Assembly: GCA_023134715.1 (NCBI GenBank)
Contig: JAGLUP010000002.1
Span: 79,906 to 143,905, forward strand
From: Candidatus Parcubacteria bacterium
Lineage (GTDB): Bacteria; Patescibacteriota; Minisyncoccia; Minisyncoccales; JAGLUP01
Length of the DNA stretch: 64,000 nucleotides
Direction: 5' to 3'
Shown: positions 9,100-60,349 of the stretch, in pieces
Position numbering within the stretch: the first letter of the stretch is position 1
Layout: each line of letters opens with the position of its first letter
The notes under the pieces: generated by a model
What the model was told of the DNA's origin: nothing
The model's database searches: none
The model's input: the letters and a program-made list of their open reading frames with translations, nothing else
Made by a program: the position numbers and the translations under genes

Positions 9100-9125
9100 T
9101 AAAAATCGTCTTATTGGCGGTTTTT

Positions 9126-9146
9126 TGGTATAATGGAATAATTATG
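9126..9146 (+). promoter_or_regulatory. extended -10 promoter placed for a leaderless rarA mRNA
   Basis: TGgTATAAT (-10 at 9129-9134), 9 nt, ATG 9144; no SD. Confidence 0.55.
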
Positions 9147-39172: not shown

Positions 39173-39232
39173 CCCCCCTCTTTTAGGATTTATGTTCTAT
39201 GTCTATGTATTGAAAAGTAAGAAAGAGGGGGG
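39173..39232 (+). promoter_or_regulatory. 5'-UTR hairpin that sequesters the SD region
   Basis: CCCCCCTCTTT (39173-83) pairs with AAAGAGGGGGG (39222-32); 38-nt loop with CTATGT repeats; ATG at 39248. Confidence 0.5.
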
Positions 39233-39247
39233 GGTAAAATAAAAAAT

Positions 39248-40240
39248 ATGAAATATTTAAAATTTTTGCTAATTATATCATTGCTTTGTGTGGCTGTAAG
39301 CTCTGACGCAGTAGTTTCCTTAGATGGAAAACAGCTAAGCCCGCAGAATATTGATTCATCTATGGATTTAAAAGTAAGCGCGCCGAAAGTAAACGTCTAT
39401 ATTGAAACTGAAAAAATAGCCCCGAAAGAAATAAAAGTTTATCTTCCTACTGTAAAAGATGTGGCAGTTGAAGTCAAAAAAGAAATAGACAACTTGAGTA
39501 TTCATCCAGATATAATATTTAATCCTGATTTTTCTGAGATTACTAATTTAAAAATTAATCCTGTGGTTGAGAAAGAAAAAGTAATTTACAAACTTGAATT
39601 GCCGACTGATACTGCTATCTATAAAGAAAAAAATATTATTCAACCGATATTTGACTTAAGGATAGACAAACCTGTTGAATTTAGAATAAAAAGCCAGCAA
39701 ATTGAAATAGGCAATGAACAAATAATAGATTATAAAAAAGTCATATCTAAAATTGAAGGCGAAAAAGCTTTTTCCGGGATTAACATAGAAGTTCAATCAA
39801 TGGCAAGAAAAGAAATGCACAACATAGAGGTTGTTCCAAAAGTAAATTCTGCTGTTTTTAAATTTACACACCGAGAACAAACGGTCTCAATGCCTGTATA
39901 TTCTGATTTTAAAGTAGAAAATAAAAAACTGTATTTGATTGAAAACAAAAAAATACATAATTTGAAAGTTTTGCCAACAGAAATTTATTCATCAGTTCAT
40001 AGTATCGCGGAGAAAAATCCAAAAGTAATAATAAACTTAATTGATTTGAAAGTTGAAAACGATAAACCAGTTTATGACTTAAGAGTGGAAGAACCATTCA
40101 AACTTCTCTGGCTTATACCAATGAAAATACAAACTAAATATCTTATTAACCCTGCAGATGGAAGCGTGAACGAAAAAGAAAAACCATGGTATTCATTTTT
40201 AGGCAGCAGCATTAAGCTGTTTGAAAATCTGTCTTTCTAA
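39248..40240 (+). CDS. secreted hypothetical protein
   Basis: Signal-like N-terminus. C-terminal LLWLIPMKIQ..NPADGSV..KPWYSFLG shared with the Kazal-repeat protein. Confidence 0.5.
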   Translation: MKYLKFLLIISLLCVAVSSDAVVSLDGKQLSPQNIDSSMDLKVSAPKVNVYIETEKIAPKEIKVYLPTVKDVAVEVKKEIDNLSIHPDIIFNPDFSEITNLKINPVVEKEKVIYKLELPTDTAIYKEKNIIQPIFDLRIDKPVEFRIKSQQIEIGNEQIIDYKKVISKIEGEKAFSGINIEVQSMARKEMHNIEVVPKVNSAVFKFTHREQTVSMPVYSDFKVENKKLYLIENKKIHNLKVLPTEIYSSVHSIAEKNPKVIINLIDLKVENDKPVYDLRVEEPFKLLWLIPMKIQTKYLINPADGSVNEKEKPWYSFLGSSIKLFENLSF

Positions 40241-43572: not shown

Positions 43573-43694
43573 TTGACAAAATTGCGCTGATACGGTATAT
43601 TTAAAATAACAATGGAGGATAAAAAGTTGAATTTTCAACTTTTAAAAATAAGTTCATTGTAAATAAAATAATGAAATGAAAAAGAGGTGTAAAA
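43573..43694 (+). promoter_or_regulatory. promoter plus conserved structured leader, copy 1
   Basis: TTGACA-17-TATATT; AATAACAATGGAGGAT; hairpin AAAAGTTGA-attt-TCAACTTTT (43622-43); TTCATT/AATGAA (43653-75); SD AGAGGTG. Confidence 0.6.
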
Positions 43695-44192
43695 ATGGAT
43701 GAAAATGAAATAAAAAACGAAATAGAAACGGATGTTTCTGATATTCCTTCAGGAGCAGCATTGAAAGCAATTAAATATTTTACGGATGATTATTTAACGC
43801 AGGGCGAATTACAAGAAAAAACAAGAGACGACCAAAAACCTGTTGCTATAGCAATAGTGAATAAAAGCGGTAATTTAATAGCTTTTATTGGTATGGATAA
43901 GGTGAATCCGATTGATGTAGAATTGAGTATTGCTAAGGCCTGCGCAGCTCAGAAGTTTGAAGCAGATACTATTGACCTAAGAGATCTGAGGCGTTTAACA
44001 TCTAATCGACCTTACCTCTATGGGGGAGGAATTACCATAAGAAACATGGAAGGAAAAGTCATCGGAGCAATAGGCGTAAGCGGTAGAGATACTGGAGAAG
44101 AAAACCATAAAATAGTAGTTGATGAGGCTCTGTATCATTTAAAAACAGTTTTGATCTCGCAAAAAAAAATGAGGGACCATATTAAGAGATGA
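43695..44192 (+). CDS. GlcG/HbpS-like (DUF336) protein
   Basis: PVAIAIVNKSGNLIAF..., GGGITIRNMEGKVIGAIGVSGRD. Confidence 0.7.
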   Translation: MDENEIKNEIETDVSDIPSGAALKAIKYFTDDYLTQGELQEKTRDDQKPVAIAIVNKSGNLIAFIGMDKVNPIDVELSIAKACAAQKFEADTIDLRDLRRLTSNRPYLYGGGITIRNMEGKVIGAIGVSGRDTGEENHKIVVDEALYHLKTVLISQKKMRDHIKR

Positions 44193-44280: not shown

Positions 44281-44331
44281 AATAATTTTAAAAACTTCGA
44301 ATATCAGCAATATTTTTATATTCTGTTAGGT

Positions 44332-44374
44332 CGGCTTTTAGTAAAGCCGGTTTTTTGGTAGAATAAAGTATATG
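44332..44374 (+). promoter_or_regulatory. hairpin plus TTTTTTGGTAGAAT module with a leaderless 18-codon sORF
   Basis: CGGCTT-ttagta-AAGCCG, T6, GGTAGAAT (-10 at 44359-64), 7 nt, ATG 44372 (MDYMNNLKNKLEYKKEGH*, to 44428). Confidence 0.5.
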
Positions 44375-44511
44375 GATTATATGAATAATTTAAAAAATAA
44401 ACTTGAATACAAAAAAGAAGGGCATTAACCTTCGGACGAACCTTAGGTGTGTCCCTTCATCGTGATGTTTTTATTATATTAAATTACAAGACATATTGTC
44501 AATAGCTATCA

Positions 44512-51823: not shown

Positions 51824-51926
51824 TTGACAAATTTCGCTTTTATGGTATAATTATAAATATTAGGAGAGAGAAACTGATTTTAATTATTCACGAAAAACAG
51901 ACCTCTCCTTTGGATGTCTGTTTTTC
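51824..51926 (+). ncRNA. promoter plus short terminated transcript (sRNA or attenuator)
   Basis: TTGACA (51824-29), 16 nt, TGgTATAAT (51846-51). AGGAGAG (51862-68) is complementary to CTCTCCT (51903-09), which lies in the loop of the terminator AAAAACAGAC/GTCTGTTTTT (51893-925). Confidence 0.45.
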
Positions 51927-51938
51927 TTTATCTCTCAT

Positions 51939-52124
51939 CAGCTCTTTGAAACAAAAAAATAACCCGTCAAAAGTCCTTCGGGCAATTAGGCGGGCAAAAA
52001 AGAAAGAGAAACCCGCCTTTGTTTAAACTTCGGCGAGGCAAGGCATTCTCCTGCTGATTGAGGTTCTAATTTTTGGACCCCAGCCAGCAGGAGAATGATA
52101 TTTTATCCCTGCGAGGTGAAAAAG
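51939..52124 (+). promoter_or_regulatory. conserved structured leader, cassette A
   Basis: 74 nt identical to 52655-52728. CTCCTGCTG (52048-56) pairs with CAGCAGGAG (52085-93) and GGTTC/GGACC lies inside. SD GAGGTG. Confidence 0.6.
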
Positions 52125-52496
52125 ATGGAATTACGTAATTTAATAGAAAGGGCAACCATTGCAGGATTGATTAAATGGGAACCTACAGAAGAGCAAGAAG
52201 TAAGAGAGAATGGTCGTATAATGCGAGGATATAAGGCAAATGTCGGAAACTTTGAGATTCGAACTATTGTTCGAAAAACTAAAAAGAAATCTTTTTGGGG
52301 TCCCACTTTTGTTTATGGAGTTGCTATAAAAGATAACTCAGGAAGAGAGAAAATTTTGACTAGTGACCCGAAAGAGCTTCCCGGAAAAAAAGAAGAATAT
52401 ATTTGCGTTATTGTATGGGGAGTCCAGCATGAGGTAGAAAATAAAGACTTGCTTACTGCCATTAAACAACAACTAGCCCAAATGACCATGTCTTAA
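52125..52496 (+). CDS. small hypothetical protein (cassette A)
   Basis: ATG 52125 sits 6 nt after the conserved GAGGTG. The track start 52095 lies inside the conserved leader. Confidence 0.5.
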   Translation: MELRNLIERATIAGLIKWEPTEEQEVRENGRIMRGYKANVGNFEIRTIVRKTKKKSFWGPTFVYGVAIKDNSGREKILTSDPKELPGKKEEYICVIVWGVQHEVENKDLLTAIKQQLAQMTMS

Positions 52497-52654: not shown

Positions 52655-52866
52655 CAGCTCTTTGAAACAAAAAAATAACCCGTCAAAAGTCCTTCGGGCA
52701 ATTAGGCGGGCAAAAAAGAAAGAGAAACAACCGAGAAGCCATCCCGGTAGACATTTCTGTAGATTGTTCTCCTGCTGATTGAGGTTCTAAATGTAACGAG
52801 AACTGTTCTCGTTACATTGGACCCCAGCCAGCAGGAGGATAATATTATTCCTGCGAGGTGAAAAAG
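52655..52866 (+). promoter_or_regulatory. conserved structured leader, cassette B
   Basis: Same blocks as A. The GGTTC/GGACC helix carries an extra 12-bp perfect hairpin (52791-52817). Confidence 0.6.
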
Positions 52867-58515: not shown

Positions 58516-58537
58516 TTATTACTAACTTATTTTAATC

Positions 58538-58573
58538 CGTAACAAATCTCGCCGATCGGCGAGATTTGTTATG
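58538..58573 (+). terminator. long palindromic hairpin, copy 1
   Basis: AACAAATCTCGCCGATCGGCGAGATTTGTT is perfect (58541-70), followed by TTTTG. Confidence 0.65.
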
Positions 58574-58611
58574 TTTTGTGCGTTTAATAGTCGAGTTTTG
58601 AATTATTTAAT

Positions 58612-58742
58612 TTGACAAACAGCATATTATTTGTTATTGTTAGAATAACAATAAACGATGAGTGATAGAAAAAGTTAAATTTAACTTTTCTTAAACGAGT
58701 TCATTGTAAATAAAATAATGAAATGAAAAAGGAGGTAATAAA
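58612..58742 (+). promoter_or_regulatory. promoter plus conserved structured leader, copy 2
   Basis: TTGACA, TGtTAGAAT (58638-46); hairpin AAAAGTTAA/TTAACTTTT (58670-89); TTCATT/AATGAA (58700-22); SD GGAGGT. Confidence 0.6.
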
Positions 58743-59234
58743 ATGGGTAAAAGAGTGGATAAAGAAATTGCAAATATGGATAAAAAAATAGAAACGGATG
58801 TTTCTGATATTTCTACAGAAGCGGCAGAGGAAATAATTAGAAAATTTATAAGAGAAGAGTGGATGCGCGCAACGAAAGAAGCTGGAGAAAATGAGTTCGA
58901 CATGGTGAAACATAAAGAAAAAAAACCCGTTGCCATGGCAATAGTAGATAGAAACGGCAAGCTAAAAGCTTTCATTAGTCTGGATGGAACAATTCCAACG
59001 GCTTCGGAACAGAGTATTCTTAAGGCCTACGAAACTTTTACATTTAGGGCAAATGCCATGTATTTCTCTAATGGAGGAATTCTGGTAAAAAATACCAAAG
59101 GTCAAGTTATCGGAGCGATAGGAGTGAACGGTAGAGACTCAATGCGAGAAAACCATGAATTAGCTATCCTTGCCCTGGAGATATTTGAAAGCTTTCAACG
59201 CACTATAAAAATGAAAATTAGAAACCAAAAATAA
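58743..59234 (+). CDS. GlcG/HbpS-like (DUF336) protein, paralogue of 43695..44192
   Basis: KKPVAMAIVDRNGKLKAF, GGILVKNTKGQVIGAIGVNGRD; shares the IETDVSDI N-terminal stretch at nucleotide level. Confidence 0.7.
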   Translation: MGKRVDKEIANMDKKIETDVSDISTEAAEEIIRKFIREEWMRATKEAGENEFDMVKHKEKKPVAMAIVDRNGKLKAFISLDGTIPTASEQSILKAYETFTFRANAMYFSNGGILVKNTKGQVIGAIGVNGRDSMRENHELAILALEIFESFQRTIKMKIRNQK

Positions 59235-59274
59235 GGTTTCTCTTTTTTTATTTTGTAAAAATAAAATCAGCAAA

Positions 59275-59318
59275 CCGGCTTTTAGTAAAGGCGGTTTTTT
59301 GGTAGAATAAAGATAATG
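59275..59318 (+). promoter_or_regulatory. hairpin plus TTTTTTGGTAGAAT module, leaderless start
   Basis: CCGGCTT-ttagta-AAGGCGG (6/7 bp), T6, GGTAGAAT (-10 at 59303-08), 7 nt, ATG 59316. Confidence 0.6.
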
Positions 59319-59672: not shown

Positions 59673-59710
59673 CCGTAACAAATCAGGTCGATCGACCTGA
59701 TTTGTTACGG
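59673..59710 (+). terminator. long palindromic hairpin, copy 2
   Basis: CCGTAACAAATCAGGTCGATCGACCTGATTTGTTACGG, 38 nt, perfect. Confidence 0.65.
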
Positions 59711-59730: not shown

Positions 59731-59837
59731 TTGACAAAATTGTGTTAATGTAATATATTTAAAATAACAATGGAGGATGAAAAAGCTGAAATTCAGTTTT
59801 TTTAAGTGAGTTCATTGAAAAAAGGGTGATTAAAAAA
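59731..59837 (+). promoter_or_regulatory. promoter plus conserved structured leader, copy 3
   Basis: TTGACA-17-TATATT; AATAACAATGGAGGAT; hairpin AAAAGCTGA/TCAGTTTT (59781-801); TTCATT (59811-16). Confidence 0.6.
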
Positions 59838-60224
59838 ATGACTGGAATAATGGCGGGAGAAATAGTAAAAAACATAAAAACAGGAAACATTGGAGTTGTT
59901 GTAGTTGATTCATACAAAGTTTGTGGAGACAACGAAATTCCAGTAGTTTATGAAGGACTTACGGCTTTTTGCGGAACCAATGCTGAAAATTTAAAAGTTA
60001 TTAAACCAGAGACTCCAATAGCTGATCCTGAAAAATGTGGAGCAGGTTTAGGTGAAAAATGTTGTATTTTTCTTTCTGTCGACCCAGATGGTTTCAAATG
60101 TGAAAGATTCACTGAGATTAGAAACGATATTCTTTCAAGAAAAGATGAAATGAAAGCAAAAAGACATCCAAAAAAAATGTTTCCCGATTGTTATTTAGAT
60201 TCTAAAAATATTGGCAAGGGTTAA
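59838..60224 (+). CDS. Cys-rich hypothetical protein
   Basis: ATG 59838 sits 7 nt after GGGTGAT; the track start 59826 is a GTG inside the SD. Confidence 0.5.
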   Translation: MTGIMAGEIVKNIKTGNIGVVVVDSYKVCGDNEIPVVYEGLTAFCGTNAENLKVIKPETPIADPEKCGAGLGEKCCIFLSVDPDGFKCERFTEIRNDILSRKDEMKAKRHPKKMFPDCYLDSKNIGKG

Positions 60225-60305
60225 CTCAAATATATAGAAAGGAATATCTAAAAAAGATATTCCGTTTATTTTTTTAGATTTTTTCTAAAACAAAAAATTA
60301 GCGAT

Positions 60306-60349
60306 CCGCCTTTCAGTAAGGGCGGTTTTTTGGTAGAATAAAGATAATG
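60306..60349 (+). promoter_or_regulatory. hairpin plus TTTTTTGGTAGAAT module, leaderless start
   Basis: CCGCC-tttcagtaag-GGCGG, T6, GGTAGAAT (-10 at 60334-39), 7 nt, ATG 60347. Confidence 0.6.

Follow-up and report, generated by a model that had tools for sequence, protein, structure and literature searches.

The stretch of DNA analysed here (the window, 64 kb) belongs to a metagenome-assembled genome of Candidatus Parcubacteria, from the Candidate Phyla Radiation (CPR, Patescibacteria), with 33% GC. It harbours three copies of a promoter-plus-leader unit: copy 1 at 43573-43694, copy 2 from 58612 onwards and copy 3 at 59731-59837. Each unit comprises a near-consensus sigma-70 promoter and a 5' untranslated region (UTR) of 85-100 nt, counted from the predicted transcription start site (TSS). 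Copies 1 and 2 precede two HbpS-like/DUF336 paralogues, and copy 3 stands before an unrelated gene for a Cys-rich protein. The initial annotation of this DNA had placed a unit of about 120 nt three times, in front of 43695, 58743 and 59838. All elements it listed are found in place, and its reading of the unit as a promoter plus 5' leader is supported. The homology is, however, longer than 120 nt and extends to a palindromic terminator on the upstream side and to a module of terminator plus promoter on the downstream side. Three further assemblies that cover the region match the window at 100% identity and therefore offer no population variation. The features of the three loci are as follows, where P1, P2 and P3 denote helices of the leader, SD the Shine-Dalgarno site and ORF an open reading frame:

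43573-43601, plus strand: promoter of copy 1, TTGACA, 17 nt, TATATT, 11 of 12 consensus positions
43609-43660, plus strand: P1/P2 domain of copy 1, P1 arms ACAAUGGA (43609-43616) and UUCAUUGU (43653-43660), AUG at 43612-43614
43612-43662, plus strand: 5'-proximal small ORF of copy 1, MEDKKLNFQLLKISSL and a stop, AUG 10 nt after the -10 hexamer
43622-43630 and 43635-43643, plus strand: paired arms of P2 in copy 1
43653-43675, plus strand: alternative helix P3 of copy 1, UUCAUUGU (43653-43660) with AUAAUGAA (43668-43675)
43683-43697, plus strand: SD AGAGGUG and start codon of gene 43695-44192
43695-44192, plus strand: cargo gene of copy 1, DUF336/HbpS-like (PF03928, E 3.7e-21)
58537-58574, plus strand: palindromic hairpin of 16 bp, -24.7 kcal/mol, probable terminator of the CNNM gene before it, also the 5' edge of repeat unit 2
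58612-58646, plus strand: promoter of copy 2, TTGACA, 17 nt, TATTGT (TTGACA to TATTGT, 58612-58640)
58647-58707, plus strand: P1/P2 domain of copy 2, P2 at 58670-58689, P1 3' arm GUUCAUUGU at 58699-58707
58730-58745, plus strand: SD AGGAGGU and start codon of gene 58743-59234
58743-59234, plus strand: cargo gene of copy 2, DUF336 paralogue (PF03928, E 9.5e-13)
59673-59710, plus strand: palindromic hairpin of 17 bp, probable terminator of the ASCH-like gene and 5' edge of repeat unit 3
59731-59759, plus strand: promoter of copy 3, TTGACA, 17 nt, TATATT
59767-59818, plus strand: P1/P2 domain of copy 3, P1 arms CAAUGGA (59768-59774) and UUCAUUG (59811-59817), AUG at 59770-59772
59770-59805, plus strand: small ORF of copy 3, MEDEKAEIQFF and a stop
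59781-59789 and 59793-59801, plus strand: paired arms of P2 in copy 3
59824-59840, plus strand: SD GGGUGA and start codon of gene 59838-60224
59838-60224, plus strand: cargo gene of copy 3, Cys-rich protein of 128 aa without a Pfam match

Within the unit the elements follow each other in the order promoter, block AATAACAAT, AU-rich hairpin, block (A/G)AGTTCATTG and SD. The three promoters match 10-11 of 12 consensus positions, and in copy 2 the TATTGT overlaps an extended -10 element, TGtTAGAAT (58638-58646). The spacing from TTGACA to AATAACAAT is exactly 26 nt in all three copies, which also share the block (A/G)AGTTCATTG. Copies 1 and 3 carry the leader block AATAACAATGGAGGAT without a mismatch; in copy 2 its place is taken by AATAACAATAAACGAT, followed by an insertion of 8-9 nt which only this copy has. 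Promoter plus leader show 70-81% pairwise identity. A profile made of the three copies recovers these and no others in the window (E 1e-21 to 2e-17, next best match E 0.66), and no further copy was detected with it in the 6 kb of contig beyond the window or in any retrieved locus. Copies 1 and 2 share 75% identity over promoter plus leader. The best-conserved stretch of the whole locus is the 3' half of the leader (43648-43690), with 93-97% identity and an exact run of 33 nt. The repeat is real, and it probably has a function.

The hairpin described in the initial annotation is an AU-rich stem of 9 bp, here called P2. It is enclosed by a second helix, P1, which had not been mentioned before and in which ACAAUGGA pairs with the invariant UUCAUUGU. 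Judged from the position of the -10 element, transcription of copy 1 would start at about 43607-43609, and the first nucleotide of P1, 8 nt behind the -10 hexamer, would be 0-2 nt away from this predicted TSS. The 5' arm of P1 would thus make up roughly the first 8 nt of the transcript, including the 5'-proximal AUG, which lies inside P1 in all three copies; the partner arm follows 37-45 nt downstream. The domain of copy 1 contains a perfect 10-nt inverted repeat, and P1 together with P2 represents its minimum-free-energy fold (-13.3 kcal/mol, z -3.18), as is also the case in copy 3 (-16.9 kcal/mol, z -3.97). In copy 2 the ancestral P1 arm has decayed to ACAAUAAAC (58648-58656), with a duplex energy of -2.9 kcal/mol. 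A replacement arm that stems from the insertion, ACGAUGAGU (58655-58663, with the AUG at 58658-58660), pairs with GUUCAUUGU at -6.6 kcal/mol. Because the insertion replaces the decayed arm, the P1 duplex of copy 2 is on par with those of copy 1 (-6.9 kcal/mol) and copy 3 (-6.3 kcal/mol).

In copies 1 and 2 a further helix, P3 (8 bp, -5.5 kcal/mol), competes with P1 for the same 3' arm. The combination P2+P3 comes to -12.4 kcal/mol in copy 1, compared with -13.3 kcal/mol for P1+P2. In these two copies P3 leaves both the SD and the start codon free. Copy 3 can be aligned down to the SD but lacks the 19 nt that hold the 3' arm of P3 in copy 1. Its UCAUU has two possible partners, AAUGA across the start codon and the GGUGA of the SD, in both cases over only 5 bp and at -2.9 to -3.2 kcal/mol. 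A pairing of TTCATT with AATGAA had been proposed initially; it holds for copies 1 and 2, where it is P3, but its counterpart across the start codon of copy 3 amounts to just 5 bp (-3.2 kcal/mol).

The pairing pattern was judged on a hand-made structural alignment of the three copies (A5). All nine pairs of P2 are formed in every copy (100% of cells paired), despite five variable stem columns. Pair 34-45 reads U-A, U-A and C-G in copies 1, 2 and 3, pair 36-43 reads G-C, A-U and G-C, and pair 33-46 reads G-C, G-C and G-U. The paired substitutions reported for the hairpin are therefore present as described, with two double-sided changes and one change from G-C to G-U. In a simple neutral simulation all P2 pairs were kept after at least five stem substitutions in 2-6 of 10,000 trials (P about 2-6e-4), which is suggestive of constraint on the hairpin. 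The most variable parts of the alignment are the junction (columns 16-28 and 51-59) and the loop, and both arms of P1 are invariant.

The two arms of P2 are separated by 2, 0 and 1 nt in copies 1, 2 and 3, a variability that fits a hairpin and not a dimeric protein-binding site. We therefore rejected P2 as a palindromic operator of a transcription factor, since its arms differ by symmetric changes and their spacing is not constant. Operators of the CIRCE/HrcA type are similar in being inverted repeats in the transcribed leader of several genes. CIRCE lies between promoter and start codon and acts on both DNA and RNA, and the sequence and spacing of its arms are fixed, since they are read by a protein. 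In contrast, the arms in the window change in a compensated way and their distance varies. Two other candidates around the motif GGAGGA were discarded as well. A long-range pairing with the coding sequence extends over 9 bp in copy 1 and only 6 A-U-rich bp in copy 2 and was judged to be chance, and GGA sites of the CsrA type are absent from copy 2.

Starting from the AUG within P1, small ORFs of 16, 6 and 11 codons can be read in copies 1, 2 and 3. They translate as given in the initial annotation (MEDKKLNFQLLKISSL, MSDRKS and MEDEKAEIQFF, each with a stop), and all three begin with M-[E/S]-D-x-K. None has an SD of its own. In each copy a plausible -10 hexamer precedes the AUG by 10-11 nt, although in copy 2 this spacing holds only after the insertion and relative to the extended -10 element TGtTAGAAT. 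Between copies 1 and 3 seven of nine changed codons are non-synonymous, copy 2 is frame-shifted, and the stop lies after P1 in copy 1, inside P2 in copy 2 and between P2 and the 3' arm of P1 in copy 3. Because the peptide is not conserved and stops at three different places, a functional leader peptide is unlikely. Leader-peptide and translational attenuators such as pyrBI, ermC and cat resemble the unit in having a short leader ORF which overlaps hairpins that a ribosome would melt. They differ in that the small ORF here is near-leaderless and lacks an SD, conserved regulatory codons and a stalling peptide, and that neither a convincing terminator nor an SD-sequestering hairpin is coupled to it.

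Of the leader-peptide idea in the initial annotation the peptide itself is thus the weak part. That the 5'-proximal AUG is translated is still plausible, given how often genes in this genome start without a leader. The first genes of many transcription units lack an SD and have their ATG 7-9 nt behind a -10 hexamer (e.g. those at 9144, 12985, 30883, 55423, 59316 and 60347). This pattern suggests that leaderless mRNAs are widespread in this Parcubacteria genome. In the survey of gene starts the three module genes are among the few in the window which combine a long UTR with an SD. With leaderless starts so common in the window, ribosomes would probably initiate at a free AUG that lies 3-5 nt from the 5' end.

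A search for more copies, as suggested in the initial annotation, gave none in the genome, metagenome and viral collections scanned. Rfam 15 has no match at gathering threshold in the whole window. In the E-value mode the best matches to the leader reach 14-28 bits, compared with thresholds of 40-160 bits, and all of them are hairpin noise. Among 185,579 species-representative genomes a 23-base gapped pattern containing the promoter has three chance matches, none with the hairpin. A promoter-free 23-base pattern has 19 chance matches in the JGI metagenomes, one of which has no promoter, though a terminator-like hairpin separates its two blocks. A loose pattern has at least 120 chance matches in the IMG/VR viral contigs, none of which scores with the profile. 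These three scans need exact conserved blocks, so that diverged copies could escape them. For the DUF336 paralogues no relative above about 41% identity was found among 5.8 billion proteins. The leader appears to be an uncatalogued, lineage-restricted structured leader, known from three copies in one genome.

To our knowledge almost nothing is known about gene regulation in CPR bacteria, which have tiny genomes and few regulators. For the unit described here we tentatively prefer the following reading. A paralogous expression module would have been duplicated within the genome, flanking terminators included. It would drive three monocistronic small genes, the two HbpS-like/DUF336 paralogues and the one for the Cys-rich protein, and co-regulate them through the shared promoter and leader. 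The self-contained two-helix domain would act in cis at the RNA level, as a portable 5'-terminal structure in which P1 buries the 5' end and the 5'-proximal AUG. The buried end would be shielded from 5'-end-dependent decay by RNase J, a 5'-3' exonuclease which CPR genomes retain (PMC12641178). The masked AUG would prevent leaderless initiation upstream, so that the message is translated from its own SD. Both the RNA-level function and the role as stabiliser and AUG mask are what we infer from these patterns. As the domain also precedes the unrelated cargo of copy 3, where the P3 arm is missing, its action could not depend on the downstream sequence.

The closest parallels to such a domain are 5'-terminal stabiliser stem-loops, for example the hairpin in the ompA 5' UTR of E. 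coli and the aprE leader of B. subtilis. Like these, the domain begins a few nt from the (predicted) 5' end, is portable before unrelated coding sequences and keeps its structure while the sequence of P2 drifts, in a lineage with RNase J. Unlike these, it comprises two helices, the outer of which is invariant in sequence and hides an AUG. The STAB-SD of the cryIIIA mRNA of B. thuringiensis offers a second comparison, since copies 1 and 3 have an SD-like GGAGGA near the 5' end and far upstream of the real SD. However, copy 2 has GAGUGA instead, and in copies 1 and 3 half of the GGAGGA, which directly follows the AUG, is paired in P1.

Several points weigh against this stabiliser reading. Covariation, for which a test had been suggested initially, is not significant with three sequences, as 62 of 500 column shuffles reach the observed value; selection on RNA structure, as claimed in the initial annotation, thus has the neutral simulation on its side but not the covariation test. 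P1 shows no double-sided change at all. Furthermore, a pure stabiliser does not need invariant P1 arms, which hints at sequence-specific recognition or at alternative pairings. The 5'-terminal placement of P1 depends on a TSS that is predicted from the -10 element. Template-switch mutation or gene conversion could make or keep perfect inverted repeats without selection. As a caveat for the paired changes in P2, the genome has other perfect palindromes with compensated differences (58537-58574 compared with 59673-59710). The copies also form a mosaic, since the 5' half of copy 1 (-10 element to GGAGGAT) resembles that of copy 3 and its 3' half (AGTTCATTG to SD) is identical to that of copy 2, a pattern that suggests some recombination between them. 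Finally, the four closest orthologues of the Cys-rich protein (47-53% identity) have unrelated upstream regions from which the leader is absent.

The main rival is a conditional switch based on the upstream small ORF, which we regard as rather doubtful. Here P1 would mask the AUG until it is opened by temperature, a factor or ribosome availability, whereupon 70S ribosomes would translate the small ORF through P2 and alter downstream expression or mRNA stability. The position of the AUG within P1 and 10-11 nt after a plausible -10 hexamer in every copy, the genuine genes of the window that start 7-9 nt after a -10 element without an SD, and the common M-[E/S]-D-x-K start would all fit such a switch. 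The lack of peptide conservation (seven of nine changed codons non-synonymous between copies 1 and 3, a frame-shifted ORF of just six codons in copy 2) and the three different stop positions relative to P1 and P2 do not, and short ORFs are expected by chance in sequence of 33% GC. In addition the TSS is a predicted one, and AUG and pairing are confounded, because the same nucleotides serve both. Its most far-reaching form, a CPR-specific cis-regulator in which the 5'-terminal P1 conditionally masks a near-leaderless AUG and 70S loading at this AUG decides on mRNA stability or translation, is in our view quite unlikely. If true, such conditional masking would be a new kind of cis-regulator, without an Rfam counterpart, for three stress-type small-protein mRNAs.

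It is just as doubtful that the leader has no RNA-level function and owes its similarity to segmental duplication, conserved DNA signals (promoter, a possible +1 operator, SD), gene conversion and inverted repeats made by template switching. The homology of loci 1 and 2, which begins about 100 nt upstream of the -35 element and includes the gene and its terminators, marks an old segmental duplication. Their cargo proteins share 38% amino-acid identity, with non-synonymous and synonymous divergences (NG86) of dN 0.475 and dS 0.77. Identical codons are used at 40 of 60 identical residues (67%), compared with 27 expected at saturation. Together with the dS value this indicates that the duplication is old but not saturated. 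The initial annotation had named as damaging the case that recent duplication alone explains the similarity and that there is no conservation in other genomes. The scans indeed found no conservation elsewhere, which fits the absence of an RNA function, but the duplication is old (dS about 0.77) and the leader is conserved well above background.

The mosaic identity pattern and the 3' terminator-plus-promoter module common to the three loci would likewise be expected from duplication and conversion at the DNA level. The same holds for a perfect 9-3-9 palindrome in the -10/+1 region of copy 2 (58634-58654, TTATTGTTA-GAA-TAACAATAA), which looks like an operator. Its left arm, however, matches only at 5 of 9 positions in copies 1 and 3. 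No transcription factor adjoins the modules; the only HTH_3 proteins sit in restriction-modification and antitoxin contexts. An identical stretch of 26 nt in the DUF336 paralogues (43720-43745) was considered as a second RNA element and rejected, as it is accounted for by the conserved peptide IETDVSDI and the 67% codon identity; its run of eight identical codons (p about 0.04, uncorrected) is not significant on its own and was not counted as evidence. It speaks against the absence of an RNA function that the pairing of P2 is kept through five variable stem columns while adjacent unpaired columns diverge, that the insertion in copy 2 restores the pairing energy of P1, and that the varying distance between the P2 arms excludes a fixed dimer site.

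A switch that responds to a ligand, a protein or a small RNA we consider improbable. In such a switch GUUCAUUG would toggle between P1 and AUAAUGAA (copies 1 and 2) or the SD/AUG region (copy 3). P1+P2 and P2+P3 are indeed nearly isoenergetic in copy 1, invariant P1 arms are expected of nucleotides with two partners, the UCAUU of copy 3 can reach either the start codon or the SD, and a candidate small RNA beside locus 1 begins with ACGAUGAAGGGA, which could pair with GUUCAUUG. However, no Rfam family comes near its threshold, and the motif is absent from the other genomes scanned. There is no common expression platform either, as P3 misses SD and AUG in copies 1 and 2, and copy 3, which lacks the 3' arm of P3, has only weak alternatives (-2.9 to -3.2 kcal/mol).

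A metabolite riboswitch in particular is unlikely, because junction and loop vary while the P1 arms are invariant, which is the opposite of an aptamer, and because P3 misses the SD and AUG, copy 3 has no P3 and the scans showed no phylogenetic spread. The suggestion of an RNA switch is therefore not borne out in the riboswitch sense. Small aptamers of the preQ1-I and guanidine-III size class share with the domain a length of about 50 nt, the position in a 5' UTR and a closing helix with an alternative partner for its 3' arm. They differ by having an Rfam match, conserved unpaired nucleotides, phylogenetic spread and a shared expression platform.

Very unlikely, finally, is a transcription attenuator in which P2 and the U run after it (UUUU, UUUUCUU and UUUUUUU in copies 1, 2 and 3) form a weak intrinsic terminator, modulated for example by a ribosome on the small ORF behind the polymerase as in pyrBI: the small ORF does run into or through P2, but P2 alone reaches only -7.8, -4.3 and -8.9 kcal/mol, mostly by A-U pairs that use up the U run and otherwise leave a stem of 4-5 bp, the U run of copy 1 has just 4 nt and is followed by A5, and the real terminators of the window are GC-rich (-9.2 to -24.7 kcal/mol), with P2 not flagged by the terminator scan.

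The non-coding frame around the leaders extends on both sides. The palindromic hairpins upstream of copies 2 and 3 (CCGTAACAAATC...GATTTGTTACGG), probably terminators of the upstream genes, have identical outer arms and three compensated differences in the inner stem, and locus 1 has a decayed version. Downstream of each cargo follows a 3' module common to the three loci (44329-44375, 59273-59318 and 60304-60349), variants of which occur at 9119, 12961 and 33450. The module combines a GC hairpin, C(C/G)G(G/C)CTTT(T/C)AGTAA(A/G)G(G/C)CGG, with the extended -10 element TTTTTTGGTAGAAT, 7 nt after which the ATG of the next, leaderless gene is found. The genes after the module are mutually unrelated: an ASCH-like gene, a gene for 199 aa and, in locus 1, only a remnant of 18 codons. 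As the shared module precedes unrelated genes, the genome seems to reuse the whole non-coding frame around different coding sequences. A miniature mobile repeat of the MITE or Correia type was considered and rejected, because there are only three copies in 70 kb, the ends of the unit have no terminal inverted repeats in common, and the copies sit in otherwise homologous duplicated loci.

If the leader is functional, such genomes would reuse frames of terminator, promoter, structured leader and terminator to co-express unrelated small genes, and with the leader one would have a compact and testable RNA element in which 5'-end structure and leaderless-type initiation are linked. Should it be no more than a constitutive stabiliser or a remnant of duplication, its value is local, namely the annotation of three promoters and of a small regulon (two HbpS-like proteins, one Cys-rich protein).

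The closest solved relative of the DUF336 genes is the HbpS structure 3fpv (E 7e-4). The Cys-rich protein is a member of an unannotated family (about 120-130 aa, 324 cluster representatives at E<=1e-3) whose invariant residues are C29, C67 (KCGAG), C75-C76, C88 and C118. The NCBI call of its start lies four codons later than that of ENA, and the alignment with homologues favours 59838. With a pLDDT of 53, its AlphaFold model is not good enough for a fold search. One of the four orthologues mentioned above, from another metagenome, has a different leader with a hairpin of 23 bp (-28.3 kcal/mol, z -5.1), the 5' arm of which holds GAUGGAGUGAU, reminiscent of AAUGGAGGAU in the window; the other three are without such a leader hairpin.

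Adjoining locus 1, a candidate small RNA is encoded on the minus strand (44410-44502). Its promoter (TTGACA-18-TATAAT) is perfect at 12/12 positions, and the roughly 55 nt behind it (44465-44410) contain no ORF and end in a GAAGGG/CCCUUC hairpin plus U6. Its predicted 5' end, ACGAUGAAGGGA, resembles the ACAAUGGAGGAU of the leader.

Two further leaders of the window deserve mention. At 51824-52095 a 12/12 promoter and a leader some 270 nt long, which has a 5' AGGAGAG/CUCUCCU stem and no Rfam match, precede the ORF 52095-52496 (no Pfam match). This ORF is flanked by an exact direct repeat of 74 nt (51939-52012 and 52655-52728), and CTCCTGCTGATTGAGGTTCTAA is also repeated. In the leader 39173-39235 of gene 39248-40240, CCCCCCUCUUU lies about 40 nt upstream of the SD AAAGAGGGGGGGG, an arrangement that resembles an SD-sequestering hairpin, the classical layout of translational control.

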